64,000 nt of DNA from Octopus vulgaris (lineage: Eukaryota), in NCBI GenBank assembly GCA_951406725.2, contig OX597820.1, positions 116,932,001-116,996,000 of the forward strand, in the 5' to 3' direction. Numbering within the stretch: the stretch's first letter is position 1; each line of letters opens with the position of its first letter. The notes beneath the pieces were generated by a model, which was not told where the DNA came from, ran no database searches, and saw only the letters and a list, made by a program, of their open reading frames with translations. The position numbers were made by a program, and so were the translations under genes. This document shows, piece after piece, positions 4,903 through 24,151 of the stretch.

Positions 4903-5425
4903 TGAGGTAATGAATGTGTGACGTTCTGTATGGAGGTAGTTAACAGCAGGTTTAAGTGGCTTTCATTAACAGGGCTCAACAGATGACAGACAACAGTAGC
5001 TGACAGGATTTCTCCTTCCCTTCTGTTCCCTTCTCCTCAACCCAACATTTCACTCTTTACTGTTCACACAGCAAATTAACAGCAAAAACCACAAACAAGC
5101 AACAAACGAGCCAGCCAGACAACAAAGCAGTCGGCTTAATATAGCAAGTGAAATCACTTTCCAACAAAGACCCCCACCCCCCAATTATGATAACAAGGTG
5201 GAGGAAGGAGCATGTGGGAAACCATAGATTTTTTTTTTTTAATTTTTGAATAGCAGGGACCAAACAAAGTCAAGATATCCATGAACTCAAAGTCGGATTG
5301 CTAAACAAAGGAACCTCTATACAGTTTCTAGATTTGCAAAAAATAGCAACTAAATTTTCCTTAAACTGCAACTTAACGTACATTATTTACATTGGACAGT
5401 TATGTGTCCTCATCTTGTTTGTTGT

Positions 5426-5472
5426 TAACTCAACGTTTCAGCTGATATACCCTCCAGCCTTCATCAGGTGTC
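5426..5472 (-). ncRNA. Minimal type I hammerhead ribozyme motif in pLTR (degraded second copy at ~6090-6135, +)
   Basis: Minus strand GACAC-CUGAUGA-A-GGCUG(loop)CAGCU-GAAA-CGU-U-GAGUU; the sister arm at 5511 has GAAACGUUGUGUU, restoring stem I; palindromic ACGU stem III. Confidence 0.75.
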
Positions 5473-5610
5473 TTGGAGAAATTTCAAACCTGGTGGAGGG
5501 TATATCAACCGAAACGTTGTGTTAACAACAAACAAGATGAGGACAAATATCTGCCAAATGTAATTAATGTACATAATTCCTGATCTCTTAAATATAGAAC
5601 TGTATTATCT

Positions 5611-6056
5611 AATCAGTACGGAGCCGACATTAGACTTCAATGGAGACATATTGCGAAACTCCAACAAAAACTAGCTCGTCTTTCAAACCATCTAACTTTC
5701 CTGTGTAGATGTAGGGGCTCAAAGCTAATACAACCTGGCTTGAATATAATGACATCAGTGGATTTATATAAAGATAGAAGAGTAGCGGTAAGGGCAGGAC
5801 ATGCCCTCGCCCATGAGAGGATTCATTACAACCGTTGGAAAAAACATCAACTAAACAATGAAATCAAAGAGAGGTTATCTTCATTACTTAGGAAAATAGC
5901 CAGTGATGGTGATAGAGAATTCAACAAGATCTAGAAATGTCATACATGAAAGAATTTGAAATGGTGAAGACATGCCAGATTAAGAAGTTTATGATACTCA
6001 AAGGTCAGAGAATGAAGACTGAAGTCCGTCACCCACCTGTGAAAGCAGTAATTAAT
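5611..6056 (+). pseudogene. Frameshifted N-terminal fragment of a Penelope-like polyprotein (no RT or GIY-YIG domain)
   Basis: Open frame 5611-5934 (includes ORF 5740..5934), continuing in a shifted frame as DLEMSYMKEFEMVKTCQIKKFMILKGQRMKTEVRHPPVKAVIN. Confidence 0.75.
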
Positions 6057-6534
6057 GAAAATGAGAACCCAGGTTCGAAATTTCCCCAAGATACCTGATG
6101 AAGGGTGGAGGGTATATCAGCTAAAACATCGTGTTAACAGCAAACAAGATGAGGACAAATATCCATCAAATGTAAATAATGTAAATAATTCCTCATCTCT
6201 TAAATATAGAACTGTGCAACTTAATGTCTTAAGAAAAAAAAAGTAAACATTGGATAATGCAGTTCCAAATATAGCAAAAGACATGATGGTCATGTCTAGA
6301 ATTTAGATAAAACTTGATCTAACAGATCAAAGGCTGGTTGATGACAACTGAAAGCCATGATTTGATCCAACTGGGTCTCATTTCTTTCAAGAACATTTCA
6401 AGTTAAAATAAAACTGAAGAAGTACTTTCATTCTTTTACTGGTTTTAGTCACTGAACTGTGGCCATGCTGGGGCAGTACCTTCAAGATTTTGTTGACCAT
6501 ACCAACCCCAGGACTTCTAGGATTCCTATAGCTT

Positions 6535-6850
6535 TATACTGACCTGCACATTGTGAATAGAATTGGTAGACAGAAATTGAGAATCTTACTCTGTGTGTGT
6601 GTGTGTGTGTGTGTGTTATACCTCCTTGCCTAGACTTAATGTGATAGTTGTAAACAAATGCTATCGTCGAGCAGTGTCCATTTCCAGTCTTCTGTGAAAA
6701 CATGATCGTGGAGAAATATTACCTTATTTGGAAGACAGGTGAGGGCTGGTGGCAGGAAGGGCATCCAGCTGAGGAACATATTCTCCTAAACAAATTGCAT
6801 CCAACCATGCAAATGTGAAAAAGTGGATGTTAAAACAGTGATGATGATAA
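6535..6850 (+). mobile_element. Old SINE with family A-like middle, (TG)n and RTE-type tail (GGAAGGGCATCCAGCTG...GATGTTAAAACAGTGATGATG)
   Basis: 5' part matches A (TTGTGAATAGAATTGGTAGACAGAAATTGA); 3' part matches family C tail motifs. Confidence 0.6.
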
Positions 6851-7159
6851 ATCATAACAGAATGTTACTAAAAATATTACATTGAACAATTAAATCTACA
6901 AGAATTTCTCTTGTAAAGGTAAATAGCATGTGGTTCAGCAGAGCCAACCATGCACAGGTAGATTTAAAAAGATTCTGTCTGTTCAATCCAGTTGGCTGTA
7001 ATCTGTGATTAAGTTTCTGTGAAACAAAGATAAGACTTCTACCTGCTTTTGTTAACTCAATAATATGTGGCTTCTAAAACCAAATTGTCTTACATATTCT
7101 TTTTCTTTCTCTCTGTAACAACATTTGATAAAAACATCAGACACCTTGGCATATATATA

Positions 7160-7551
7160 TGGCTGTGTGGTAAGTAGCTTGTCTACCAACCGCATGGTTC
7201 CGGGTTCAGTCCCACTGCGTGGCACCTTGGGTAAGTGTCTTCTACTATAGCCTCGGGCCGACCAAAGCCTTGTGAGTGGATTTGGTAGACGGAAACTGAA
7301 AGAAGCCCGTCGTATATATGTATATATATATATGTGTTTGTGTGTGTGTGTCTGTGATTGTCCCCTAGCATTGCTTGACAACCGATGCTGGTGTGTTTAT
7401 GCCCCCGTCACTTAGCGGTTCAGCAAAAGAGACCGATAGAATAAGTACTGGGCTTACAAAAGAATAAGTCCCAGGGTCGAGTTGCTCGATTAAAGGCGGT
7501 GCTCCAGCATGGCCACAGTCAAATGACTGAAACGAGTAAAAGAGTAAAAGA
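7160..7551 (+). mobile_element. SINE family A (tRNA-derived head, CORE-like ACCTTGGGCAAGT block, internal (TA)(TG) microsatellite, GTAAAAGA tail)
   Basis: A-box-like TGGCTGTGTGGTAAG and B-box-like GGTTCAGTCCC; more than 20 homologous copies or fragments in the window. Confidence 0.92.
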
Positions 7552-7577
7552 TATATATATATATATATATATATATA

Positions 7578-7790
7578 TTACGGAGATGTACTTGCATAGC
7601 AAGTGATTTGATCTGAGATCGTGTGCTGAAACGAAAACAATTGCAGCGTGGAAGGTGTTTGTAAGCCATTTAAGAAACACACAAAAGCCGTTCGATTCAC
7701 TTCAACATTTAAGTTTAATTTGTCAAAATATTTTCATCGCTATAAGACCGCGACCTGTTCACTGACAAAAATCCGTGCTGCATCTCTGGT
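7578..7790 (-). mobile_element. Penelope-like pLTR fragment adjoining a (TA)n tract; same family as 16882-17231
   Basis: Close match to 16882-17071 (ORF track 7648 vs 16924 translations are near-identical). Confidence 0.8.
7719..7769 (-). ncRNA. Hammerhead-fold RNA with variant G3:C8 core
   Basis: Minus strand UUUGUCA-GUGAACA-G-GUCGC(GGUCUUAUA)GCGAU-GAAA-AUAU-U-U-UGACAAA: perfect 7-bp stem I, 5-bp stem II, palindromic AAUAUU stem III. Confidence 0.7.
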
Positions 7791-8073
7791 TATACACATA
7801 CAATTTATATACGTTATTATTATTTTTTTTTTGCAATTTACTTAATCTTTGACATTTTATTGTTATTTTAATGTTAATATTTCTATTATATGTAATTTTC
7901 TAGATGGTGTAATTTAATTGTTCATTTTGAATTGATAAAAGGTGTTTTTTTTCTAATTTTTTTACATATATATTATATTGTGTGAAATTTGATTTAGTAT
8001 TTCTAAATTGAATTTTTTTCCTTGTAAGTTTTGGATTTTATTCCCTCAAATATTAATAATTATATATACATAC

Positions 8074-8183
8074 ATATTAGAAGAAATGAGGTACTCAGAA
8101 ATCTGGATGGTTTTATATTTACAGATATTTATTAGCGCTTTTGTCCACTCTAGTGGAGTCTAGTACCTCATTTCTTCTAATAT
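8074..8183. repeat. 22-bp perfect inverted repeat with 66-bp spacer (MITE or PLE remnant)
   Basis: ATATTAGAAGAAATGAGGTACT 8074-8095 versus AGTACCTCATTTCTTCTAATAT 8162-8183. Confidence 0.75.
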
Positions 8184-8294
8184 ATAATACCTGTACATCA
8201 TCTCCAAACATTCTAATATATATGCATGCCAAATTATAAGACTAAATATTTCACAATAGATATTTGACTGGACCCAATTTATATGAAATTAGTA

Positions 8295-8642
8295 GTGGCT
8301 GTGTGGTAAGTAGCTTGCTTACCAACCACTTGGTTCTGGCTTCAATCCCTTTGCATGGCACCTTGGGCAAGTGTCTTCTGCTATAGCCTTGGGCTGACTA
8401 AAGCCTTGGATTTAGTAGATGGAAACTGAAAGAATCCCATCATGTGTGTGTGTGTCCTACTACCACTTGATGACTAGTGTTGATGTGTTTACGTCACCAT
8501 AACTTAGTGGTTTGGCAAAAGAGACTGGTAAAACAAGTAGTAAGCTTAAAAAAGGATAAGTACTGGGGTCACTTTGTTCAATTAAAATTCCTCATAATGC
8601 TCCAGTATGGTTGCAGTCTAATGACTGAAATAAGTGAAAGAT
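8295..8642 (+). mobile_element. SINE family A, diverged copy
   Basis: Head, body and tail motifs align with family A. Confidence 0.85.
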
Positions 8643-9077
8643 ATGTTGGGGGCTGGAAAAGAATTTTGATCCAAAAGACCTATAATCAAAGCCATGTGAG
8701 TTGTACCCCAGATACATTACCCAAACTTCTCTTCTTCTCAAGATAGAGTGAGGTTTGAAGACTAAGCTGCTACATCTAGCAAATCAAATGATTAGATTTC
8801 CTGAGGAAATACTGTATTTATTGGTGGAGCAGAAAGAAATTGTCATTTTTAATAATTGATAAATTGTAAGAATGAAGAGAGGAAATATCCTATAAATTTT
8901 TTTCTGGAATGATATTACCATTTATTTTTAAGAGGTGACAAAGTAACTCTCAACATTTATATTTCATAGCAGCAGTTGTTTTAACTTTAGCCATTAAATG
9001 TCTTGTTGAAGAACGTGGAGAATGAGACTTATGGAGTTTCAAATGGTGAGGCCTGAAATAATTCATCATAATTCAAT

Positions 9078-9300
9078 ATCATCATCATTTAACGTCTGCT
9101 TTCCATGCTGTCATCAGTTGGATGGTTTGGCTGGAGACTGGCAAGCTAGGGGGTTGCACCAGGCTTCAACCTGATCTGGCAATGTTTCTACAGCTGGATG
9201 CCCTTCCTAACGCCAACCACTCCGAGAGTGTAGTGGGTGCTTTTTGACATGCCACCATAATGAGGAGCCAGTCAAGCAGCACAGGCATCGGTCACAACTA
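9078..9300 (-). mobile_element. Family C non-autonomous retroelement (RTE-type tail)
   Basis: Contains TTTCTACAGCTGGATGCCCTTCCTAACGCCAACCACTCC and a (CAT)n end. Confidence 0.85.
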
Positions 9301-9374
9301 CAATTTCCATTTGATTTTAATTATATTTGAATAACTTCATCATTAAGCAGCAACAATAATAATAATGGTTTCAA

Positions 9375-9780
9375 ATTTTGGCACAAGGCCAGCAGTTTTT
9401 GTGGAGGGGATAAGTCGGTTACATCAACCCTAGTGCATAACTGGTACTTATTTTATCAACCCCAAAAGGATGAAAAGCAAAGTCAACTTTGGTGGAATTT
9501 GAACTCAGATCGTAAAGACAGACAAAATACTGCTAAGCATTTTGCCTGGAGTGCAAAGAATTCTGCCAGCTCACCAAATTTATAAATAATAATAACAACA
9601 ATAAGACTTATTTCAACAATTTTAGGAAGGTATCAATCAATGAAATCGGCCCCAGTATATGACAAGTACTTTATTCTACTTTAAGATGGGAAGCAAAGTT
9701 AACCTTGGTGGAATTTGGAACTCAGAATGTAAAGATGGAGGAAATGCTGCTAAGGATTCTGCCGGTGCCACACCGCCATT
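9375..9780 (-). mobile_element. Two diverged family B SINE copies
   Basis: Two occurrences of AAAGTCAACTTTGGTGGAATTTGAACTCAG-like motifs. Confidence 0.7.
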
Positions 9781-9846
9781 AGTGGCAGCGGCAATGGGTT
9801 TCTACTATAGACATAAGGGCCGAAAGTATTCTGTGTAGAGAATTCT

Positions 9847-9879
<33 letters not shown>

Positions 9880-10039
9880 AGGAAAGGAAGGAAGGAAGGA
9901 GGGAGGAAAGAAGGAAGAAGAGAAGGAAGGGAAGGAAGGACAGGATGGTCATATCTCTGATCAAAGCCTTGCAACTACATGCAGCAGACATGCACTGAAC
10001 ATCAAAAGAAATAGAACCCGACATTGCTGAGTGAAAGAA

Positions 10040-10407
10040 GGCATGGCTGGGAGGTTAAGAAGCCCACTTGCAACCATATGGTTTTGGGTTCAGTCCCATT
10101 GCATGGCACATTGAGTAAATGGTCATCTACTGTAGCCCAGTGTTGACCAATGCTTTGTGAGTGAATTGAGTAGATGGAAACTGTGTGGAAGCCTGTGGTG
10201 TGTGTGTGTGTGTGTGTCCCACCACCTGATAACTAATGTTGGTTTGTTTATGTCTCTGTAACTTAGCAGTTCAGAAAAAGAGACTGACAGATCAATTATT
10301 AGACTTAAAAATATGTACTGGGGTTGGTTTGTTCAAGTACACCCCCTCAAGATAGTACCCCAGCATGGCCACAGTCCAATGACTGAAATAAGTAAAAGAT
10401 AAAAGAT
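10040..10407 (+). mobile_element. SINE family A, diverged copy
   Basis: Family A motifs through CAGCATGGCCACAGTCCAATGACTGAAATAAGTAAAAGA. Confidence 0.8.
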
Positions 10408-10943
10408 AAATGACTGGGACACTTGACAGTAATTGCCAACATGAGAGATAAATCATTACGACTGAAGAAAAAAAGAATTTTAAATCATTAAGCAATTATT
10501 TTGGAAAATAATTAATTTGACATGAGTTGATATCTTATCAATCATTAACTGAAGCCTTCCCCAATGAAAGTAGAAGAAATATAAAACATAAAATGGGTAA
10601 AAAGAAAAAAAGAGAAAATTAAACATCAAGAAAAAATATAGACTAAGACTGTGGTGGTGGTGGGGGGATTGACATCATGTAAATATTTAAAATAATTTAG
10701 ATTGTTGTACGAGAAATCTGCTGATGGAATGTTAAAGACAGAAGGTTTGGTAGTTGTGCAGTCTAAAAGGTTTCATCTTTTACCTACAACATTTAAATTT
10801 CTAATGTTAATCCTACATTAACTTTAATAATGTTAAGCTGACATTGCTAATAATTCTGTAATCCATTTCAGTGAATTGGTAATCCAAGAGGATTACCATA
10901 GAACAAGATTTCTTCCTTTCTTGGTGCCATGCCAACAAGCAGA

Positions 10944-11135
10944 TGTGCTGGTGCCATATATAAAACACTGGCGCTGGTGCCATGTAAAAAGCACCAAGTA
11001 CACTCTGTAAAGTGGTTGGTGCCACGAAGGATATCAAATCATAGAAGTGCTGCCAAAACAGACAACTGGAATCTGGTGCAATCCTCTGGCTTGCTAGTTT
11101 CTATAAACAGTCCAACCCATGCCAGCATCGAAAAT
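10944..11135 (+). mobile_element. Family C, diverged copy
   Basis: Tandem TGCTGGTGCCAT..AAAA(G)CAC motif followed by the family C body. Confidence 0.7.
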
Positions 11136-11791
11136 ACATCCGCACAAGGGATCTACAGAATTAATTTGTGAGAAAAAACATATTCAGAAGGAATAAACTA
11201 TAGTAACTATCATTTATTTCTTTGTAATTATTTGATTAATTTAAATAGTTCATGTATGGAACGCTATAAACATGGTAAGATCTACAATTCAAGGACAGTG
11301 GTTGTGGTCTGCATCAGTTGAAGTTAATCTGTAAAAGTTTGGGGGAAGAAACGAATCACAGCAAGTCGATTTCTTGTGAGGCATAAAAAATTCATTGATT
11401 GGAACAATAGTCATTCTTTGGAGAGAGAAAATATGGATAATACGATAGTGTTAGATACGGGAGTGAGAAAGAGATGAAAGAATGAAACATGGTGTAAATG
11501 TGTGTAGAGAAAAGGAAAACAAAGTGTGAGAGTATTGAGCAATGTCGGGGGAAATAAAGCCTCGTCAGGAGATGTTTTGCTAAATTAAAGAACAACTCTC
11601 TGAAATGAAACACTGCATCATCTTCCTATAGAGTGATAACAACAGCAATAATTATCCAACCAAATACTATGAACTTTTTGGTGTTATTTATCTCTAAGCA
11701 GACCTGAGATCAAAAGCATTCCAGCCATGACCATCTCGTCTTTTCTTTTTTTTTTTTTTCAGGTAGTGTATCTAGGACTATATTATAAATG

Positions 11792-12009
11792 ACTGGCAGA
11801 AACGTTAGCATGCTGGGCGAAATGTGTAGCCGTATTTCGTCTGCTGTTACGTTCTGAGTTCAAATTCCGCCGAGGTCGACTTTGCCTTTCATCCTTTCGG
11901 GGTCGATAAATAAAGAACCAGTTACGCAGTGGGATTGATGTAATCGACTTAATCTCTTTGTTTGTCTTTGTCCCCTCTATGTTTAGCCCCTTGTGGGCAA
12001 TAAAGAAAT
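11792..12009 (+). mobile_element. SINE family B inserted in an old family E repeat
   Basis: Family B body; flanking duplication TATATTATAAATGACTGG; family E sequence on both sides (~11685-11790, ~12020-12100). Confidence 0.88.
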
Positions 12010-12108
12010 ATATATTATAAATGACTGGTGTCCTTCTTTTATTAAGACTGTAGGGTGTGATTCAAGTGAATTTTTACTTATTTCTAACAGGTCGCAAGAC
12101 CACATCAA

Positions 12109-12330
12109 CCCTTTAGCATTTAAACCAGCCATATCCGGCCAAAAGTATTCTACCTGTTTTATGTTCAAACTGGCCAGATCTGGTCTCTCACACCAACCTT
12201 ACAATATCGTTTTAAAAATTAACAGCTACCTCATCAAAATCTCAAAGCTACAAGATAATGCCTGATTAGTTCAAGGCAATGTGGATAAAAAAAGGATTAA
12301 TTTTGGCAGAATAATGCGAACACTAAAGGG
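12109..12330 (+). mobile_element. piggyBac-type MITE (~220 bp)
   Basis: CCCTTTAG...CTAAAGGG termini with TCAA/TTAA flanks; homologous to 45097-45317 and 58210-58428. Confidence 0.88.
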
Positions 12331-12474
12331 TTAAAGCTTGAAACTAATGTCATCAGTAGAGAGGATGCGACTAACGAATAAGACAGATTCTTCGCCCACA
12401 ACCCCAACACTAGACCCAACCCCTTTTGTTTTGTTTTTTCAACTGTCATTGCATCACACAAAAAGGATACTTAC

Positions 12475-12516
12475 CGAATAAATTGATGGACTTGGTATTG
12501 TACAAACTATCAACAC
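12475..12516 (-). CDS. Candidate 42-nt frame-preserving coding exon of an unidentified host gene (phase-1 reading VDSLYNTKSINLF)
   Basis: Branch-like CTGAC, then TTTTTATTTCTAATTTCAG acceptor and CG|GTAAGT donor; length divisible by 3; unique non-repeat sequence. Confidence 0.5.
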
Positions 12517-13033
12517 CTGAAATTAGAAATAAAAACTTAAGTCAGAATTTATAGACAAAGTCCTTCTCACAACGAAGGTAAGTTTACTCAGAACAATACA
12601 CTTCACCCCACTTCTTTTTTTTAAAAAATCTAACCCAGATTTATATGTCTTTGTTACATTCAAAATTCACATACCTACACGCAGAAACATTGCGTATGTG
12701 CATGAGTGTGTGCACAAGAAATACATACATGTGGGAGCTGTTAACTTCAACAAAAGATGCAGCTGTGGGAGGAAACTACAAAACCACAACGGCTCCCATC
12801 TCTGTTATTCCTTCCATGCCCTCACGTGTGAGGAAGCTAGAGAAGAAGTGATTTTTTTTTGTTTCTTTTATTGCAATCACATGTGATACTCAGATGGTTA
12901 CGACAAAAGGGGCCACTGCTTGTGTGTGGCACCAAGAAGCCTGAGACTTGTGTTTTCGGGGTTGGGGATGCATGCCTGCAATTCATATTTTGCAGCATGT
13001 GTTTCAATCCCTGAATGTCTGAAGCCAAAAAAA

Positions 13034-13354
13034 CCCTTTTGTTACAGTATTTTTGTTTAAACTATTCTTATATCTGTTATTTTTGAAAATAACGAAGAAT
13101 TCACTAAAGCAATTTTGTCATAATTAAACTGGTCTATTCTATTCTATTACTCTATTACTTGTTTCAGTCATTTGACTGCGGCCATGCTGGAGCACCGCCT
13201 TTAGTCGAGCAAATCTACCCCAGGACTTATTCTTTGTAAGCCCAGTACTTATTCTATCGGTCTCTTTTGCCGAACCGCTAAGTGACGGGAACGTAAACAC
13301 ATCAGCATCGGTTGTCAAGCAATGCTAGGGGGACAAACACAGACACACAAACAT

Positions 13355-13397
<43 letters not shown>

Positions 13398-13659
13398 CGA
13401 CAGGCTTCTTTCAGTTTCCGTCTACCAAATCCACTCACAAGGCTTTGGTTGGCCCGAGGCTATAGTAGAAGACACTTGCCCAAGATGCCACACAGTGGGA
13501 CTGAACCCGGAACCATGTGGTTGGTAAGCAAGCTACTTACCACACAGCCACTCTTAATTAAAACCTATTAAATTTTATGTAAATTTAAGATCACTTTAGA
13601 ACAGGAAGTCAGCATTAGAGAATAAAGGGTTGTCTCAGGAAGGTTGGTATCAAAAAGGG
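13034..13659. mobile_element. Old piggyBac-like MITE interrupted by a family A SINE
   Basis: Ends CCCTTTTGTTAC / GTATCAAAAAGGG are imperfect inverted repeats; TTAA flanks are degenerate. Confidence 0.45.
13153..13553 (-). mobile_element. SINE family A, near full length
   Basis: Near-consensus reverse-complement copy. Confidence 0.92.
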
Positions 13660-14069
13660 TAAAAACTCATGTTTCAAAAGATTGTGTCCTTCTCTTATGT
13701 GAACTTTATCATGTAAATGCACTTACATAATATACATATGCACTTATATTTATGCATATGAACATACATACATGCTACTGAATGGCTATTACTCTCTGAC
13801 AAGTTTTCCTTTTTACCCAGCAAAACTGCCCAAAAGTCCACCTCACCAAAAAAATTTGATGGGGTTGCAGTTTAGCTGCTGACTGCCTGACCGAGCAGAA
13901 GTTGTCTTGGCTTATATGGTTACCAGTAATGGGATCTGGATATCACATCTACTGATACACGTGCACAAATATTCAGCACTGGTTGCACTGCTTTTTATAG
14001 CAGAAACGACTGTAAGCCAATGGCATTCATTGTGAAACTTCTTAACTCGACCTGACATCCATATATTCT

Positions 14070-14480
14070 TTTATTCCTTTACTTGTTTCAGTCATTTGAC
14101 TGCAGCCATGCTGGAGCACTGCCTTTAGTCAAGCAAATCGACCCCAGGACTTATTCTTTGTAAGCCTAGTACTTATTCTATCGGTTTATTTTGCCGGACC
14201 GCTAAGTTACAGGGACCTAAACACACTAGCATCACTTGTCAAGTGATGTGTGTGGGGGAAACAAACACACACATACAAACATATACACACGCACACACAC
14301 AACACACATATATATACGATGGGTTTCTTTTTAGTTTCCGTCTACCAAATCCACTCACAAGCCTTTGGTCGGCCAGTGGCTATAGCAGAAGACATTTGCC
14401 CAAGGTGCCATGCAGTGAGACTGAACCCAGAACCATGTGGTTGGTAAGCAAGTTACTTACCACACAGCCACTCCTGTGCC
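14070..14480 (-). mobile_element. SINE family A, near full length
   Basis: Near-consensus reverse-complement copy. Confidence 0.9.
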
Positions 14481-15000
14481 CATACATATATATATATATA
14501 TATTATATACCCGCTAAAAGGACACTTGTGAAAAATTGAAGAAATCATTATTTCCTAATGTCTTTCAATATACAAGACCAGCTGAAGAATTTAATGCAAA
14601 AGTCTATTTGAGCGAAGTGAGCTTAATGCCAAATATACTTGTGGCAGCAAATATATGCCACTTTAATTAAGTTGAAGTGTAGAGACATTAAAAGATATTA
14701 TGTTCTATATTTATGTATAAAGTGAGTCTGTGGTTAGAAACACTAGGAGACATATTGTGTCTCGGCTCAAAGTTTTGTAGGAGAGTGGGGAGGGGGGGGG
14801 AGATGGAGAGAACAGGCGAGAAAGGAAGATGGAGGGAGGAATGAAGATGGAAGAGAGAGAGAGAGAGATGGAGAGAGTGAAACAGAGAGGAAGCAAGAGA
14901 GAGGGGAGAGAGGAAACAGTTTGAGAGACAGGGAGCAAGTCTGAGAAAAAGATATGTGGGCAAGTTGCAAGAGAGAGAGAAAGAGAGAGAGAGATTGATA

Positions 15001-15453
15001 AAGAGAAAAGTGTGTGTGTGTGAAGAAAAAACTGTGTGCCTGTGAAGAAAAATGTGTGTGCGTGTGAAGAAAAATGTGTGTGTGTGTGTGTGTGAAGAAG
15101 TGTATGTGTGTGTGTGTGTGTGTGAAGAAAAATGTGTGTGTGTGTGTGTGAAGAAAAATGTGTGTGTGTGTGAAGAAAAATGTGTGTGTGTGTGTGTGAA
15201 GAAAAATGTGTGTGTGTGTGAAGAAAAATGTGTGTGTGTGTGTGTGTGTGAAGAAAAATGTGTGTGTGTGTGAAGAAAAATGTGTGTGTGTGTGAAGAAA
15301 AATGTGTGTGTGTGTGAAGAAAAATGTGTGTGTGTGTGAAGAAAAAAGTGTGTGTGTGTGTGTGTGTGTGTGAAGAAAAAAGTGTGTGTGTGTGTGGTGT
15401 GTGTGTGTGAAGAAAAAAGTGTGTGTGTGTGTGGTGTGTGTGTGTGAAGAAAA

Positions 15454-15488
<35 letters not shown>

Positions 15489-15503
15489 GAAAAAAGTGTG
15501 TGT
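15001..15503. repeat. Compound satellite [GAAGAAAAA(A)(TG)n] with variable TG count
   Basis: Direct inspection; explains the long HT/FF-rich ORFs at 14688-15564. Confidence 0.95.
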
Positions 15504-15987
15504 GAGCAAGTGCAAGAGAGAGCAAAGAAGATGATGCAAAAGTGGCAGTATTGTTGCATCTCATGTCTATTTTTTGGTTTATGTAATTCCCCTAACAGGT
15601 TGATCAGTTTGCAGAAAATACAGCCAAATGACTTTGTTTCAGTTGATACGTTAGAATATCAGCACCATGTTACTAACCTACGACCTACAAATTCGGTTTG
15701 ATCTCCCTGCAGCTACCAAAGTTTAAAACCATCTCTCTAACTGCAGAAGCCATGCAATATAAAAGCTAATCAGAGTTTAATAGTCAGCTTAAGAAGACTT
15801 TGCAAAGTCACTTTCAAAGAAGCATCAAGATTTCAGATAAAATAAATTATTGCTGAAAGCAAAATGTTCTTCAGAGAAATTATTTTAAAAGCTAAAGCTC
15901 AACTGGTTCGTTTACTTTAATATTTATGATATTTAAATAATTATGAGACAGGAGTAAAACTGATTTCATATCATCTATGCACACACA

Positions 15988-16245
15988 GTCAGTGCGTGAC
16001 CTGGCATTGACATGAGGAACGCTGCATCTTCCCAGGTGCATATTGCCAAGTTGGAAATGGAATGCAGGCAACTGGTTGGATGGAGTCTTAGAATTTTCAG
16101 AGCAAGAGGGCAGGAAACCAAGATGGGCTTCTGGGGGACATCCGCCCTCAGCTGTGTTGATTACTGGCCCAAACTAGGATCACCATGCAGTGTAAAATTA
16201 ATGGCAGAAGTTGAAATAATCCAACAAAAACTATATAAAGACTGA
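15988..16245 (+). mobile_element. CR1-clade LINE ORF2 fossil (post-RT region)
   Basis: Translation RDLGIDMRNAASSQVHIAKL...LVGWSLRIFRAR...LSCVDYWPKLGSP...EIIQQK matches the CR1 pattern KDLGV...GWILRTF...LDYCSQLWSP...LEAIQR. Confidence 0.8.
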
Positions 16246-16317
16246 AATGGTTAGAAGTCTGCTCAAATCTGGACATGTTGGACAGACCTATACACATTTT
16301 GTTTTTCAAAAAATACA

Positions 16318-16479
16318 GCGTAGGAGTGGCTGTGTGGTAAGTAGCTTGCTTACCAACCACATGGTTCCGGGTTCAGTCCTGCTGCGTGGCACCTTGGGCA
16401 AGTGTCTTCTACTCTAGCCTCGGGCCGACCAAAGCCTTGTGAGTGGATTTGGTAGACGGAAACTGAAAGAAGCCCATCG

Positions 16480-16530
<51 letters not shown>

Positions 16531-16741
16531 ATATATGTTTGTGTGTCTGTGTTTGTCCCCCACCCAACATCACTTGACAACCGATGGTGTGTTTACGTCC
16601 CCCGTAACTTAGCGGTTCGGCAAAAGAGACCGATAGAATAAGTACTAGGCTTACAAAGAATAAGTCCTGGGGTCGTTTTCCTCGACTAAAGGCGGTGCTC
16701 CAGCATGGACACAGTCACATGACTGAAACAAGTAAAAGAGT
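16318..16741 (+). mobile_element. SINE family A, full length
   Basis: Near-consensus copy. Confidence 0.92.
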
Positions 16742-16881
16742 AATCTGTTAACAGCATTTTAATATAGGATCACAGTGTTAGCTGCTGTTATTTAACTCTA
16801 GGTCAGCCTTGATCAAGCAAGCCTATGATCAAAGGCATTCCATCCATGACCGTGTCTATCTAGCACTACATTATTCATTAT

Positions 16882-17231
16882 TATGGAGATGTACTTGCAT
16901 AGCAAGTGACCTGATCTAAGATCGTGTGCTGGAACGAAAACAATTGCAGCGTGGAAGGTGTTTCTGAGCCATTTAAGAAACACACAGAAACTGTTAGATT
17001 CACTTCAACATTTAAATTTAATTTGCCAAAATATTTTCATCACTTTGAGACTGCGATCTTTTCACTGACAAGATTTAGCACAGAGACACAGCACAGAATT
17101 TTATCAGTGATCAGGTCGTGGTCTGAAAGTGACGAAAATATTTTGGCAAATTAAATTTAAATGTTGAAGTGCATCTAACGGTTTTTGTGCTTTTTTTAAT
17201 GGCTTATAAACACCTTCCGCACTGGAGTTGT
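16882..17231. mobile_element. Palindromic Penelope-like element with two G3-type hammerhead motifs in opposite orientation
   Basis: Inverted arms ~16935-17068/17104-17231; TSD TTATTCATTAT at 16871-16881 and 17232-17242; interrupts a family E repeat. Confidence 0.8.
17101..17150 (+). ncRNA. Hammerhead-fold RNA, G3:C8 core variant (second copy)
   Basis: UUAUCA-GUGAUCA-G-GUCGU(GGUCUGAAA)GUGAC-GAAA-AUAU-U-U-UGGCAAA. Confidence 0.65.
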
Positions 17232-17700
17232 TTATTCATTATGTCTTTCTTTTAATAAGATGGTATGGAGTGATTTAAATGAGATTTGATGGTGAATGTC
17301 TTGGATGGCTTGCCAAGTATCCAAATCTCACATCACATCATAGACAATGTGTAGACTCTCAGTTTTCTTAGATATTGTTGCTGATTAGCGCCATGTTAGG
17401 CATATCCGAGCTGGTTTATACAACAAGAGGGAATTCAATGAGTTTCCAAGATATATCGTTGTTCAATGTGTTCGATGTATCCTTTATTTAAGGTGATAGG
17501 ATATGATTCGAGGGAAAGTTGTCTGCTATTGCTAGCGAGGAAAAATAAAGTAAGAGACATGGGTAGACTTTTCGAAGCCTGCAGTTTTAATAGAGAAACC
17601 AACATGCAAATTGTTGAGCAGAGAGAGAAGAAAATGATGGAGGAGAGAATATGGGATGAAAATAGAAATGGATGTAGGTTTAATACATTACCAACAATTA

Positions 17701-17752
<52 letters not shown>

Positions 17753-18588
17753 GAAAAAGAGAGAGAGAGAAAGAGAGTGAGTGAGAAAGAGAGAGAGAGA
17801 GAGAGAGAGCAATTTAGTAGACTCCTAATTTAAATAAGCCATAAGCTTTATCCTGGATGCGTGTGGCATGCAGTCTCTTTCTTCACCGTCTGTGCATATT
17901 CTGTGTGCATGCATGTTTGTCGTATCAGTGTGTGTATGCTTGCTATCTGCATGCAGTGTGTGTGTGTGTGTGTGTGCCTTGTCAGCATGCATGCTCATCT
18001 GCATGCATGGATGCTTGTCAGTGTGCATGTGCGTGTGTCTCGTCTGTGTTTACATGTCTTGTGTATCTCTCATCCGTGTATGCACACGTCATAACTTCAG
18101 ACATGTGCACATGTTTACGTATTTGCATGTGTGTGATACATGCATTGTTAATGCGGGTGTGTTTCTTTTTGTATGTGTGTGTGTGTGAACATATGTCATC
18201 TGTGTGTGGGTGTGAACATGTCTCCATGTGTGTGCTCATATAGTCTGCACATGTGCATGCATGCATGTGAATACCAGGCCTGCAGGAGAGTGCATGTCAT
18301 ATCTGTTAGCATGTGAGTGTGTGTCCATGTGCAGTCTGTGCAGTCTGTGCATACATACATAAAAAGTCAGATTTCACAATCCACTCACAAGGCTTTGGTC
18401 AGCTTGGGGTTATAAGAAGACACTTGCCCAAGGTGTCAAGCAGTGGGACTGAACCCGGAACCATGTGGTTGGGAGGCAAACTTCTTACCACACACCCACA
18501 TCTGCACCTATATACAAGGAACATGGTGTTGGCTGAGTATACCTCCTGAACTTAGAAAGATCATTTTAAGTATTTTAGGTGCACAACA

Positions 18589-18689
18589 TTTTTTCCATTT
18601 TTAATGCATTTTTTTGGCTATAACTCTCTAAAAATGCTTATATAGTTATTTCCCTTACAAACCCGAGCAACGCCGGGTGATACTGCTAG
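18589..18689 (+). mobile_element. Helitron 3' end fragment, same family as 42016-42410
   Basis: Hairpin CCCGAGCAACGCCGGG followed by CTAG|T; shares TATATAGTTATTTCCCTTACAAAC. Confidence 0.8.
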
Positions 18690-19575
18690 TTTATTACTAA
18701 AGCTATAAAGCAACAGAAACTAACATTTAAACCAAATATCAACAATTTATTTTTGAAAGCAATTAAATTGTAAACTGCAAACAGGAAATTCTGACAAGCA
18801 ACGTGTCCCGATATGTAAATGGCCAGTATATATGAAGTCATAATAACTTGTGTCATGTTTGGAAATCATTATAAAGAATTAGTGACTAATGAAGAACTAA
18901 AGATGGAAAATGATATTTAAGGAATGCATGTCAATAACGATCATCAATTTTATGGCGAAACAAGAAAATAAATAAATGAAATGAAGAATAAAATTAAAAG
19001 GGAAATAGCTTTTTTTTTTTTTTAAACTAATCCACTTCATTTGTCATAATTAAATCTTGAGCTTAATAAATATTGTAAATAAAATATGCAAAAACTGGTG
19101 TTTGCTCATCAATCAAACTGAACTGATGCTTTGGGATAAAAGAGATTTCTTTAAAAAACTGAAGAGAAAATGTTTCTTTAATTGTGAAATTATAGAATTC
19201 CTATGTTGACAATGGAATGTGTGAGAGGCAGAGAAACAAGACCACAAAAGAACACAAGAGAAGCGTTGCAGTAAGAAACCATGCAGTAAGATTGGACCTG
19301 AAACTGTGTGGTTGCAAATGAAACTTCACCACACAGCCAGATATCTTTTACTTGTTTCAGTTATTAGACAGCAGCCATGCTGGAGCACCACTTTGAAGAG
19401 TTTTTAGTTGAATAAATCAACCCCCAGGACTTGCTTTCAGTTTCAGTCAAACAAATCCACTTGAAAGGCTTGAAGCCATAGACGACAATTGCCCAAGGTG
19501 TCACTCAGTGAGACTGAACCGGGAACCAAGTGACTGGGAAGCAAAATACTTCCTACCACACAGCCCACACCTGTG

Positions 19576-19629
<54 letters not shown>

Positions 19630-19640
19630 TATTATTATAT

Positions 19641-20054
19641 TGTGCTTGAGAAGACCTGTCAAGCCAAGTGAAATCGTAGTTGTGACTGATGCTGGTGTCA
19701 CATAACTGGCATGTAAAAAGCACCTTTTGAGCGCTGGGCCTCATGGAGGCAAGTGTTGGGCCAAACGGAAGCAATGACTAAGACCTTTGGCATTATGTCG
19801 TGCTTGAGAAGATCCATCAAGCCAAGTAAAATCAGTGGTGGCAGATATTGGTGTCACACAAATGGCACCTGTGCCGGTGGCATGTGAAAGCACCCATTAC
19901 ACTTTCGGAGTGGTTGGCATTAGGAAGGGCATCAAGCTTTAGAAACCATGCCAAGTCAGACTGGAGTCCGATGCAGCCTTCCATCTTGCCAGCTCTGGTC
20001 AAACTGTCCAACCCATGCCAGTATGGACAACGGACGCTAAATGATGATGATGAT
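19641..20054 (+). mobile_element. Family C, long copy
   Basis: Repeated GTGCTTGAGAAGA..C.TCAAGCCAAGT and GGCA.GT.AAAGCACC modules, GGAAGGGCATC motif, (GAT)n tail. Confidence 0.85.
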
Positions 20055-20061
20055 ATATATA

Positions 20062-20288
20062 GCGAGCTGGCTGAAACGTTAGCACGCCGGGCGAAATGCT
20101 TAGCGGTATTTCGTCTGCGTTACGTTGTGAGTTCAAATTCCGCCGAGGTCGACTTTGCTTTTCATCCTTTTGGGGTCGATAAATTAAGTACCAGTTATGC
20201 ACTGGGGTTGATGTAATCGACTTAATACTTATGTCTGTCCTTGTTTGTCCCCTCTATGTTTAGCCCCTTGTGGGTAATAAAGAAATAG
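20062..20288 (+). mobile_element. SINE family B, full length
   Basis: Near-consensus copy ending AAAGAAATAG. Confidence 0.92.
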
Positions 20289-21269
20289 ATATATATATAT
20301 AGGAAACCATTCTATTTATAACTGAGAAGCTACATCAGTGATTGAAGGACCTAGAGTTTCATACCAGAGCACTTACCAAACTGAAAGAGCCACTTACGTA
20401 GTTTCTCAGCTATAAATAATACAAATACTCCAGTTAATGTCAGAAGTTCTAGTTCCCGTGTTTATATAACCTATCGTACATGTATAATATGAGTTTACGA
20501 GAGTGTATACGTGTTTGTATGTAATGTAATTTTAGTATAGTGAATTGCTTTAGATTTTTTTGCTGTTTTTTATGCAATGTAACATTGCAGTACTTTATCA
20601 AATGAAAGAAACATTAATTTCTCTTGCATCGGTGAAGAAACTAATAATTTCTAAAGTGTCTGAGTTAATAAAAAAACAATAAGATATAATGAACACTAGA
20701 AAGACCGCTGGAATGAAGAGATGTAATCAACAGCCAACATTTTGAAATGTCAACAGAATTTTAAAATCTATACTCCTACATAAATAACTATATTTAGCAA
20801 TTTGCAGAATATCAAATTTAATTGGCCCAAGAGAAAGATTGAATCTCTTTGACTGAGTAGTTTAGCAGCAAAGTATTGGTAAAGCTAAACCAAACAGCTC
20901 TTTGATAATCTGCTTAGTCTGTTACTAAAACGGATTTAGCAGCACAACGTTCTGACTATGGTAAACAAATGCAGCATAGAATTCTATTGAATGGCAATGC
21001 TTCAAATTTAAAACTCAAAGCATCGATTTGGAGGTGAATCTCTTCAGAGACTCTTTAAAGACAATTAAGATTGCTTTATTTTCAAAGAAAAATTATGATA
21101 TAAATCCTATTTCTGTGATTGGGTTTTTTTGCTTTTGTTTTTTGTTTTGCTTTTATTTTTTTTTCCGGCAACAAAATCTAGGATTTCATTAAATAGCAGG
21201 CATGTCCACCAATAGACTATAAATGGAGTTCTTTGAAATTAAGCAGTGAAAATTAGTGTGTGTGTGTGT

Positions 21270-21835
21270 AAGAGAGGAAGAGAGAGAGAGAGGAAGAGAG
21301 AGAGAGAGAGAAGAAAGAGAGAGAGAGAGAAAGAAGAAAGAGAGAGAGAGAGAGAGAAGAAAGAAGAAGAGAGAGAGAGAGAAGAAAGAAGAGAGAGAGA
21401 GAGAAGAAAGAAGAAGAGAGAGAGAGAAGAAAGAGGAAGAGAGAGAGAGAAGAAAGATGAGAGAGAGAGAGAAGAAAGAGGAAGAGAGAGAGAGAGAAGA
21501 AAGAGGAAGAGAGATGGAGGGAGAGGAAGAGAGATGGGGGGATAGGAAGAGAGATGGAGGGAGAGGAAGAGAGATGGAGGGAGAGGAAGAGAGATGGAGG
21601 GAGGGGAAGAGAGATGGAGGGAGGGGAAGAGAGATGGAGGGAGGGGAAGAGAGATGGATGGAGGGGAAGAGAGAGATAGGAAGAGAGAGAGAGCGGAAGA
21701 GAGGGAGAGGAAGAGAAAGAGAGGGAGAGGAAGAGAGAGAGAGGGAGAGGAAGAGAGAGAGGGAGAGGAAGAGAGAGAGGGAGAGGAAGAGAGAGAGGGA
21801 GAGGAAGAGTGGGAGGGAGAGGAAGAGAAGGAGAG
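21270..21835. repeat. Polypurine GA-rich compound micro/minisatellite (units of roughly 18-21 bp)
   Basis: Direct inspection; explains the E/R/G-rich ORFs. Confidence 0.95.
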
Positions 21836-22205
21836 TGTGTTAATATAAATGGTGGCAATCTAATATTTCAATAAATCTGAAAGTAGTCAAAGATATTAAA
21901 ATTTAATCTAATTAATAACAAAGGAAAGATTTAATTTCTAACGTCGTAACATACAACAATCGTTCAATTTTAATGGAGCTAAGAGAGAAAATTGGAAAAT
22001 TTAAGGAAAAGAAAAAAAAAAAAAGACAATTTCCATCTGTAACTAGAAAATAGAAGTTCTGTAGAATAGCAGAATGGTTTGTGATATTTAATAGAAGAAT
22101 ATTCACAAAAAAGAAAGGATGAATTGTGAAAGAAATTCAAAAAGATATGTTAGAAATCAACAAAGTATTTTACACATTATGTAACACTAGGATAGAAAGT
22201 ATTGA

Positions 22206-22252
<47 letters not shown>

Positions 22253-22519
22253 CTCATTAACTCTTTGCCTGTCCAAAGCATTTTTATAAGTTTATCCTAA
22301 ATGTCCGTGCTTGTCCTCAGACATTTAGTTCTTGTTTCATATGTTCTGAGCCCAAGTTTGCCGGTTGGAAAAAATTGGGAATATGTATCACATATGATGC
22401 AGGAATGTTGTGGGAATATGTGCTGAGTATCACGTGATACAGGGGACAGGCAAAGGGTTTCCTTAAGCATCCTTAGGATGCTGAAGGAAACCTGCAAACT
22501 ATCTACATGTAATGAATTG

Positions 22520-22895
22520 TTCATCATCATCAACATTTAATGTCCGCTTTCCATGCTGGCATGGGTTGGACGATTTGACTGAGGTCTGGCGAACCAGACT
22601 CCAATCTGATCTGGAAGAGTTTCTACAGCTGGATGCCCTTCCTAACGCCAACCACTTTGAGAGTGTAGTGGGTGCTTTTACGTGCCATCAGCATGAGGGC
22701 CAGTTTGGTGGTACTGGCAAAGGCCACGCCCAATGGTGCTTTTTATGTGCCACCTGCACAGGAGCCAGTCCAGTGGCACTGGTGACGACCTAGCTCGAAT
22801 GTCTCATGTGCCACCAGCACAAGTGCCAGTAAGGCGACGCAGTAACAATCACACTTGGATGGTGTGTTTAACGTGCCATCAGCACGAAGGCCAGC
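22520..22895 (-). mobile_element. Family C copy with four internal motif modules
   Basis: (CAT)n end, GGATGCCCTTCCTAACGCC and repeated GGTGCTTTT.A(C/T)GTGCCA motifs. Confidence 0.85.
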
Positions 22896-23337
22896 TATCA
22901 ACAGATAATTGTCCTCTTCTGAGCCATGAGAGGATCTAAACGTTAGTAAAATTAATCTTTCCACAATCAAATTATACGTAAGTATTATAGGGGTCATAGG
23001 AGATTAACCAATTTGATGAGGAAAGTTTCAGCCTCTGTTATTCTATGTTTCTGGCAAAACCTCTTGAATTTAGAAAAAAAGAAAAAAAATACCAACTAGT
23101 TTTCACTCCAAGTCAGGAGAGCTCTATTTTGCCTATGGAAAATTTCCAAACATATGAACTTCCCTAGCAGACAATTAATACAAGGGAGATAATCATTTCT
23201 TCATAATATTTGGTAGGATTAAAAGTTTAAAATTCAAATTAACAAGATACACAGAATATAGATTTTTTTTTTTTGCTTTTGTCTATTTATTAAGAAGGTT
23301 TAGGTTTTCTAGTCTTAGGTAATCATCTATAGCACCA

Positions 23338-23740
23338 AGCTAATATGGCAGTCCATAAATATAAGACTAAAGCTGCTGTTGATCAGCTCCAAGAGGCCAT
23401 TGCCTCTAGCTAGCTATATGACACACGAACCTGCGTCCATTACAACCTTCGAACAGGGGAGGACAGCCGCTTCACCTTGCTGGTCAGACATCTGCAGACA
23501 TGTTTCAGGGTTGTTGCCCTTCATCAATGCAGAGTAGCCAGACCTCCCCTGTTCGAAGGTTATAATGGACACAGGTTCGTGTGTCATATAGCTAGCTAGA
23601 GGCAATGGCCTCTTGGAGCTAATCAACGGCAGCTTTAGTCTTATATATATGGACTGCCATATTAGCTTGGCGATAACTGTTAATTTCCAGTACCGCTGCC
23701 GTAGTCTCCTTTAGAGAGACTTAGAAATTTTAATATTTCT
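23338..23740. mobile_element. Palindromic Penelope-like element with ~128-bp arms and a hammerhead motif in the loop
   Basis: Arms 23335-23462/23543-23670 are near-perfect inverted repeats; TSD ATCTATAGCACCA at 23325-23337, right copy split by the SINE at 23748-24151. Confidence 0.8.
23491..23533 (-). ncRNA. Minimal type I hammerhead ribozyme motif (C3 mutated to U)
   Basis: Minus strand UCUGCA-UUGAUGA-AGGG(CAACAA)CCCU-GAAA-CAUG-U-C-UGCAGA; perfect stem I, palindromic ACAUGU stem III, GUC site. Confidence 0.78.
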
Positions 23741-23747
23741 ATCTATA

Positions 23748-24151
23748 GGCGCAGGAGTGGCTGTGTGGTAAGTAGTTTGCTAACCAACCACATGGTTCTG
23801 GGTTCAGTCACACTGCGTGGCATCTTGGGCAAGTGTCTTCTGCTATAGCCCCGGGCCGACCAATGCTTTGTGAGTGGATTTGGTAGACGGAAACTGAAAG
23901 AAGCCTGTCATATATATGTATATATATATGTATGTATGTGTATGTGTGTTTGTGTGTCTGTGTTTGTCCCCCTAGCATTGCTTGACAACCGATGCTGGCG
24001 TATTTACGTCCCCGTTACTTAACGGTTCGGCAAAAGAGACCGGTAGAATAAGTACTGGGCTTACAAAAAATAAGTCCCGGGGTCGATTTGCTCGACTAAA
24101 GGCGATGCTCCAGCATGGCCGCAGTCAAATGACTGAAAACAAGTAAAAGAG
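23748..24151 (+). mobile_element. SINE family A, full length
   Basis: GGCGCAGGAGTGGCTGTGTGG start through GTAAAAGAG tail. Confidence 0.93.

Follow-up and report, generated by a model that had tools for sequence, protein, structure and literature searches.

Three unrelated hammerhead-bearing repeats of Octopus vulgaris and their probable insertion by a Penelope-like enzyme

How can short repeats that have no sequence in common and encode no reverse transcriptase (RT) come to share one hairpin-like arrangement? This question is raised by a 64,000-nt stretch of Octopus vulgaris DNA (GCA_951406725.2, OX597820.1:116,932,001-116,996,000; hereafter the window, the positions of which are used as element coordinates), taken from a host genome that is 2.8 Gb in size, AT-rich and repeat-dense. 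A sequence-only reading had singled out three mini-elements in it, here named E1 (5380-6214), E2 (16882-17231) and E3 (23333-23740), as unrelated non-autonomous families of one palindromic architecture, inserted in the manner of Penelope-like elements (PLEs). Our analysis agrees that they appear to be Penelope-type, hammerhead-bearing insertions, that they are without common sequence (four of five pairwise BLASTs were empty at E<=1, and the fifth returned an 11-nt chance match), that unequal head-to-head arms are present in all three, and that an RT is absent from all three (a PLE-HMM scan of the window gave zero matches). The target-site duplications (TSDs), put at 11-13 bp, have that length in E2 (11 bp, exact) and, with one mismatch, in E1 (13 bp; 10 bp exact), and measure 8 bp in E3; random window flanks reached exact lengths of 10, 11 and 8 bp in 0.6%, 0.4% and 1.5% of 3000 trials, respectively.

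Copies outside the window (L numbers) were taken from selected loci and from a separate sample of 1 Mb of position-picked DNA (C1-C17 only), which was used for per-Mb densities. In addition, 30 loci each were selected by the tails of E2 (64-nt tail query) and E3; E1 is without such a sample, as its tail query returned zero matches, likely because its words are common in the genome. The 1-Mb sample contained about 18 (E1), 6 (E2) and 5 (E3, sister lineages included) matches per Mb, and extrapolation of the 6/Mb found in C1-C17 suggests that E2 has on the order of 17,000 copies genome-wide.

Twin-arm footprint and insertion model

Each family has two fixed outer ends, termed "long" and "short", which lie 25 (E1), 57 (E2) and 55 (E3) nt apart. 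Among 52 two-armed copies with both ends free, 24 could be classified, and these comprised 22 long+short, 2 short+short and 0 long+long pairs (p about 2e-5; at most half would be long+short if the ends were independent). In the tail-selected sets all 24 classifiable copies (of 31) were long+short, which brings the total to 46/48. The remaining two-armed copies (28/52 and 7/31) were set aside on account of internal inversions, deletions, or ends just beyond the 8-nt tolerance. The arm centres vary between copies, and in many copies (L142, L146, L149, L158, L160, L168, L130, L140) each arm holds sequence absent from its partner. TSDs outside microsatellites measured 6-15 bp in E2 (27 copies) and 4-15 bp in E3 (20 copies), mostly 7-15 bp, and TA or AAT repeats were the targets of 17/44 (E2) and 25/45 (E3) two-armed copies. 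The palindrome proposed as a common family architecture did not stand, since 13/31 E2 and 17/30 E3 tail-selected insertions are one-armed; judged from these copies, the hairpin is made anew at each insertion and corresponds to the published PLE footprint of an inverted pseudo-long terminal repeat (pLTR) plus tail.

This footprint, with an inverted pLTR, a one-sided tail and 8-10 bp duplications, is described for PLEs in PMC3846280 and PMC8557442. The purified PLE protein of the anole, a predicted dimer, is reported to nick and extend both strands of AT-rich DNA, and its RT to start at two internal sites bounding the tail (PMC11167929). We propose, with a probability of about 80%, that E1, E2 and E3 are three unrelated RNAs inserted by a Penelope-like RT/GIY-YIG enzyme that primes twice, on each strand of a staggered cut, at two fixed sites of the RNA. 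The enzyme would cut AT-rich DNA in a staggered manner and prime once from each strand, reverse transcription would start at the two fixed internal sites of the template, and the two cDNAs, made by an asymmetric enzyme dimer, would be joined head to head where each had stopped. The templates would differ: for E1, a full-length autonomous RNA of the Poseidon type, about 2 kb of the copy being lost once; for E2, a linear RNA of ~207 nt and constant 5' end, representing a solo pLTR and likely transcribed from a pLTR promoter; and for E3, retrozyme RNA built of 362-nt units, either multimeric or circular. We infer that the footprint is most simply read as the result of double priming at a staggered cut.

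Several observations weigh against this proposal. The loci were mostly top-scoring matches and are biased towards young or window-like copies. The 28 free two-armed copies set aside have an end at neither site, and L032 is an exception of the long+long type. The tails of E2 and E3 (55-57 nt) exceed the published 30-40 nt. E2 RNA folds no better than shuffles (z -0.24), and E2 arm ends near the predicted cleavage site form a weak cluster (11/21 at 55-85, p 0.019, the interval being picked post hoc); E3 arm ends show no pile-up at the predicted cleavage site. Moreover, a search for autonomous PLE partners with matching pLTRs, as called for by the sequence-only reading, found none for E2 or E3.

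Alternatively, as has been suggested for rotifer PLEs (PMC3846280), the inverted arm could arise by self-priming or fold-back, in which a single cDNA or an antisense template folds over and is copied back. The two arms of a copy are indeed more alike than arms of different copies (E3, 94.6% vs 89.2%, n=36; E2, 93.6% vs 92.5%, n=34), and the short arm lies wholly inside the long arm in some copies. However, an arm has its best match in its own partner in no more than 15/36 (E3) and 6/34 (E2) copies, and the fixed internal site at which the second arm stops is also an end point of one-armed copies. In the many copies listed above, sequence unique to each arm excludes simple fold-back, and we regard this origin as unlikely. 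The idea that the elements are miniature inverted-repeat transposable elements (MITEs), that is, DNA transposons with terminal inverted repeats in which hammerheads occur by chance, is far less credible still. MITEs are likewise short, AT-rich, high-copy hairpins with duplications, but the arms here differ in length and have lost variable stretches on the inner side, one-armed copies are numerous, TSD length varies, relatives of E1 encode a PLE RT, and the hammerhead motif occurs at 9/Mb vs 0 in shuffles, with covariation. Assignment to the MITE class was rejected, as equal terminal inverted repeats and a fixed duplication length were not found.

RNA templates of the three families

Relatives of E1 extend to units of about 2.6 kb, in which an RT (PF00078; YVDD in L070) and a GIY-YIG-type C-terminus lie between pLTRs. 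One open reading frame (ORF) that combines a PLE-type RT with a C-terminal GIY-YIG between pLTRs was seen in L070, L071, L073 and L079, the GIY-YIG part being recognized by eye and giving no Pfam match. The family also bears the PLE marks of hammerhead pLTRs, an inverted 5'-truncated pLTR and a tail, and the PLE-HMM scan of the window and 170 loci gave no match outside 20 E1 loci. The best 150 scored RT candidates of the family show decay, and their open frames do not exceed 569 aa. Of 40 scored matches to a query across the deletion junction of E1, only the window copy itself covered it in full, and three other deleted copies of the family have different junctions. Because the junction is unique and the other deleted copies join elsewhere, E1 is best read as a one-off internal deletion of ~2 kb in an old autonomous element of the Penelope/Poseidon type; the Penelope/Poseidon clade would be indicated by the absence of the Zn-finger linker seen in L201-L210. 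The earlier view of three non-autonomous families thus fails for E1, a unique deletion of an autonomous element, and holds for E2 (a short solo pLTR) and E3 (a retrozyme), which are recurrent and protein-free. Assignment of E1 to the retrozymes that lack long terminal repeats (non-LTR retrozymes) was also rejected, as no recurrent short non-coding monomer was found and the junction is unique.

The pLTR of the E1 family starts with a tRNA-like head (A and B boxes; reference 2316-2390) followed by (AAT)n. In the 1-Mb sample, 7 of the 18 fragments of the family begin at reference 2316-2334, inside this head, and form a short class that coexists with full-length copies; the window copy is without the head. 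Many copies begin precisely at the head, which was noted in L220, L231, L260, L261, L266 and L272, and the short class resembles short interspersed elements (SINEs) though the family is autonomous. As a side observation, E1-type deletions (window 6059/6060; L065, L075) start near a splice-donor-like motif, and the right breakpoint in the window is preceded by an acceptor-like motif; in L065 the break is at the donor position and the join elsewhere, and these deleted copies were chosen for their likeness to the window. A splice origin of the E1 deletion is conceivable, although the junction carries 2 extra bases and is unique.

For E2, the 30 best loci have both outer ends in common and differ in their centres. 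All 30 tail-selected loci end at the same base (18 two-armed and 13 one-armed insertions, 31 counted), 26 of 47 arm ends fall at positions 4-22 of the 212-nt reference, and the upstream flanks are unrelated. Neither an ORF nor a shared longer flank was found beside 60 selected loci or 6 position-picked copies, and these contain no regular tandem unit, L133 being one irregular compound copy. From the common end base, the clustered arm ends, the unrelated flanks and the lack of tandems and ORFs, the E2 template appears to be a linear RNA whose 5' end is fixed and precedes the core by about 25 nt. Classification of E2 as a non-LTR retrozyme was rejected, since tandem same-orientation hammerhead units were not found and the 5' limit is hard. 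A and B boxes within one mismatch of the box consensus are present in neither E2 nor E3, so that these families do not qualify as tRNA-derived SINEs transcribed by RNA polymerase III (Pol III). In the E2 unit at 16882-17085 (minus strand), the first and last ~8 nt are complementary, and the 207-nt RNA is predicted to close on itself.

The hard 5' limit of E2 fits a transcript start, and E2 may instead be a short by-product of a longer, rarer parent transcript, on which RT primed at the 5' pLTR runs off the 5' end of the RNA after about 200 nt. The same short class is found in the E1 family, in which the fragments beginning within the A/B-box head stand beside full-length copies. However, 0/60 selected loci and 0/6 position-picked copies of E2 adjoin an ORF or a shared longer flank, and contig loose ends at the 5' limit disagree among themselves; we consider such a parent possible rather than probable. 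A search with protein P0043 returned E1-family copies and two young Neptune-type families, the flanks of which match neither E2 nor E3. In the young Neptune-type PLEs (L201, L203, L206, L210), RT, Zn-finger linker and GIY-YIG are intact within open frames of 806-878 aa, and these PLEs could act in trans as enzymes. Long (CA)-rich tracts follow the ORF in one of these families, and the pLTR hammerheads of the Neptune type use ACGU. The top matches of an RVT_1 family search were taken for non-PLE RTs and discarded.

E3 forms tandems of 362-nt units, which were first seen in L034 and likewise in L104, L165 and L261. A monomer-junction query yielded 1389 candidates, of which the 40 scored were 98-100% identical; all 30 junction-selected loci are partial or full tandems without an ORF, and no ORF adjoins the 30 tail-selected loci. 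Since arms extend beyond one monomer in 4/39 tail-selected cases (395-551 nt) and reach 944 nt in one junction-selected insertion, the E3 template appears to be a multimeric or circular RNA; another 4/39 arms measure 362-372 nt, which hints weakly at a single round on a circular template. The predicted fold of the monomer (z -4.8) is a rod that carries the hammerhead at its tip. The units are non-coding, arranged in tandem, a few hundred nt long and each provided with a type I hammerhead of covarying fold, so that E3 has the characters of a retrozyme. A sister lineage (about 82% identical; L261:8460-9666, L256:48-299, L264:8156-8597) carries ACGCGU and a G-C closing pair in helix II, and its young tandem in L261, from the position-picked sample, has near-identical units that point to recent activity. 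E3 words were met in four coded organisms (A-D) and E2 contigs in A and B (sequencing runs X1, X2, X8, X11 and X15-X19, no RNA run being listed among the holders), which suggests that both families are common to related species. The features of the three elements are listed in Table 1; a very abundant SINE-like repeat of ~400 nt with an internal TA/TG tract (23749-24150), present in more than 10 window copies, abuts the right TSD of E3.

Table 1. Positions of element features in the window
Feature	Position	Strand	Remarks
E1 left TSD	5367-5376	+	exact over 10 bp; 13 bp (to 5379) if one mismatch is allowed
E1 inverted pLTR arm	5379-5493	-	outer end at short start site; core C3:G8 5461-5467; ACGU 5433-5436
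E1 upstream pLTR	5492-5602	+	5'-truncated, without core
E1 PLE ORF N-terminus remnant	5603-6059	+	open 5614-5931 (106 codons); then ~2-kb internal deletion at 6059/6060
E1 downstream pLTR	6060-6214	+	ends at long start site; tail about 25 nt; core 6095-6101
E1 right TSD	6215-6224	+	
Second E2-family copy, one-armed	7579-7788	-	beside TA microsatellite
E2 left TSD	16871-16881	+	11 bp
E2 long arm	16882-17075	-	includes ~57-nt tail (16882-16939); core 17059-17065 broken (C8A)
E2 short arm	17083-17231	+	G3:C8 core 17107-17113, bulged G, AAUAUU 17137-17142
E2 right TSD	17232-17242	+	
E3 left TSD	23325-23332	+	8 bp
E3 short arm	23333-23542	-	stops about 13 nt ahead of the usual short site; core of type I hammerhead 23521-23527; ACAUGU 23498-23503
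E3 long arm	23541-23740	+	monomer positions 163-362; ~55-nt tail 23686-23740
E3 right TSD	23741-23748	+	

Hammerhead cores and stem III palindromes

Rfam gave no hammerhead in the window or in 5 further loci. Our own window scans were mostly empty as well (the exact core had 0 matches, and a one-mismatch core matched only E3), since the hammerheads of the window copies have decayed or deviate from the consensus; across each family the motifs stand out clearly. In E1, the hammerhead of the inverted arm has a wobble as the closing pair of stem II and one mismatch in stem I, and that of the downstream pLTR has lost G12 and the palindrome; the E3 window copy has U3.G8, the family U3:A8. Among copies covering at least 80% of the motif, the E1 family has C3:G8 in 49/59 and ACGU in 29/59, with a further 18 CpG-type decays, the E2 family has G3:C8 in 88/96 and AAUAUU in 87/96, and the E3 family has U3:A8 in 78/79 and ACAUGU in 63/79. 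The three different palindromes pointed out earlier were thus all found and are kept within families, and E2 and E3 recur as non-autonomous structures; the description of all three hammerheads as minimal does not apply to E3, the layout of which is of the canonical metazoan type I. A descriptor that accepts every Watson-Crick pair at 3:8 gave 9 matches in the 1 Mb of position-picked DNA vs 0, 0 and 0 in three shuffles, and a second version gave 7 matches in the same sample vs 0 in five shuffles.

Compared with the minimal PLE hammerhead (C3-U-G-A-N-G8-A, GAA, bulge, G10.1-C11.1 and palindromic helix III), the predicted E2 motif agrees in everything except the 3:8 pair, which is G:C. G3:C8 has been published as a partly active laboratory double mutant (PMC11167929; PMC3884650), and a natural U3-A8 variant is in print (PMC4209133; PMC3088659). 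A natural G3:C8 hammerhead was not found in our literature search, the coverage of which did not extend to the largest survey of such variants (Lunse et al.) or to the supplements of papers. In the E3 hammerhead, helix I comprises an internal loop and an outer stem, helix II is 4 bp long, and helix III is a single base pair capped by a palindromic tetraloop; this is the canonical layout of metazoan type I hammerheads (PMC4209133; PMC7229834). In an alignment of 21 rows, chosen for diversity out of 55 distinct pattern matches and with kinship uncontrolled, 7 pairs change on both sides, a count reached in 3/500 shuffles. The centre of the palindrome swaps between ACAUGU, ACGCGU and ACUAGU, and 6/21 rows change on both sides.

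The predicted hammerheads would cleave as dimers via the palindromic stem III; dimer cleavage through a palindromic helix III is already published (PMC4209133). We think it likely that the palindrome is kept because it lets two identical neighbouring motifs pair, and discrimination between families would be a by-product. The stronger proposal of the sequence-only reading was that the palindromes, in three non-autonomous families of fixed palindromic build, are a selected self-recognition code that restricts dimerization and cleavage to RNAs of one family. It is consistent with the conservation counted above, with the E3 sister lineages, which change the centre yet remain palindromic, and with predicted E3 homoduplexes of -4.6 to -7.5 kcal/mol vs -0.8 to +0.9 kcal/mol for heteroduplexes between E3 lineages. 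It appears doubtful all the same, as the hairpin varies between copies, E1 does not represent a family structure of the non-autonomous kind, ACGU is common to E1 and an unrelated Neptune-type pLTR family (matching L201, L203 and L210), the E2 duplex itself is predicted at only -0.2 kcal/mol, and cis pairing within a tandem transcript needs a palindrome and no code (PMC4209133; PMC6765202). A lone C3:G8 hammerhead-like motif with a long helix II and ACGCGU was seen on the minus strand of L224 near 9801; it is unrelated to E3 and represents a further family sharing an E3-lineage palindrome.

Comparison with known systems

The endonuclease-bearing (EN+) PLEs described earlier (Adineta Pen2a/Pen2, PMC3846280; anole PAc, PMC11167929; PMC8557442) resemble E1-E3 in having a direct and an inverted 5'-truncated pLTR with a tail at one end, and share 8-10 bp duplications, AT-rich targets and two RT start sites; Pen2 also has an internally deleted derivative flanked by inverted pLTRs, like E1 (PMC3846280). 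Unlike these PLEs, E2 and E3 are without an ORF and their tails measure 55-57 nt, and the pLTR of the E1 family has a tRNA-like Pol III head. A further difference is the near-strict long+short pairing, counted here across three families. Published hammerheads resemble those found here in the palindromic 15.2-16.2/loop 3, the dimer model, opposite-strand pairs 100-700 bp apart and the natural U3-A8, and share with E1 and E2 the bulge between positions 9 and 10.1; they differ from E2 in that the latter has G3:C8 family-wide.

Metazoan non-LTR retrozymes, as reported in PMC7229834 and 10.64898/2026.07.22.740005, are like E3 (362-nt monomer) non-coding tandems with a type I hammerhead, a 1-bp helix III, a palindromic tetraloop, a strong fold and a proposed mobilisation by PLEs. 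E3 departs from them in its U3:A8 core, its A10.1-U11.1 closing pair and its dispersed short insertions with the PLE twin-arm footprint; moreover, no homologous PLE pLTR was found. MRC1 of Chlamydomonas, a non-autonomous PLE, is protein-free like E2 and E3, forms pLTRs and inserts head to tail, and its clade is reported to be without canonical hammerheads, and it to resemble its autonomous partner at the 3' end (PMC8557442); E2 differs in its single pLTR, its hard 5' limit and a partner that was not found. Retrozymes as parasites of PLEs are already in print (PMC7229834; Li, Clavereau and Pollet 2026), and a literature search on octopus, Penelope and hammerhead returned no paper that deals with the E1-E3 families by title or abstract.

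In sum, an insertion footprint that is already known occurs here on templates of three kinds, together with an unusual ribozyme variant and a pairing rule that can be put to the test. A bolder scheme, which we put forward as speculative, would hold that PLE integration is obligately asymmetric, with one subunit of the dimer at the long site and the other at the short site, that parasites diversify the 3:8 pair (C:G, G:C, U:A) and the palindrome, thereby insulating sister RNAs from cross-cleavage, and that E2 is a new class of ~207-nt solo-pLTR SINEs with a natural G3:C8 ribozyme cleaving only by trans pairing. The layout is textbook Penelope, and the near-strict long+short pairing in three unrelated high-copy families provides a sharp genomic prediction for the existing in vitro PLE system. 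The family-wide natural G3:C8 core, which is missed by standard hammerhead searches, offers a natural test of the 3:8 tertiary pair, and the swapped palindromes of the E3 sister lineages make homo- versus heterodimer cleavage directly testable.

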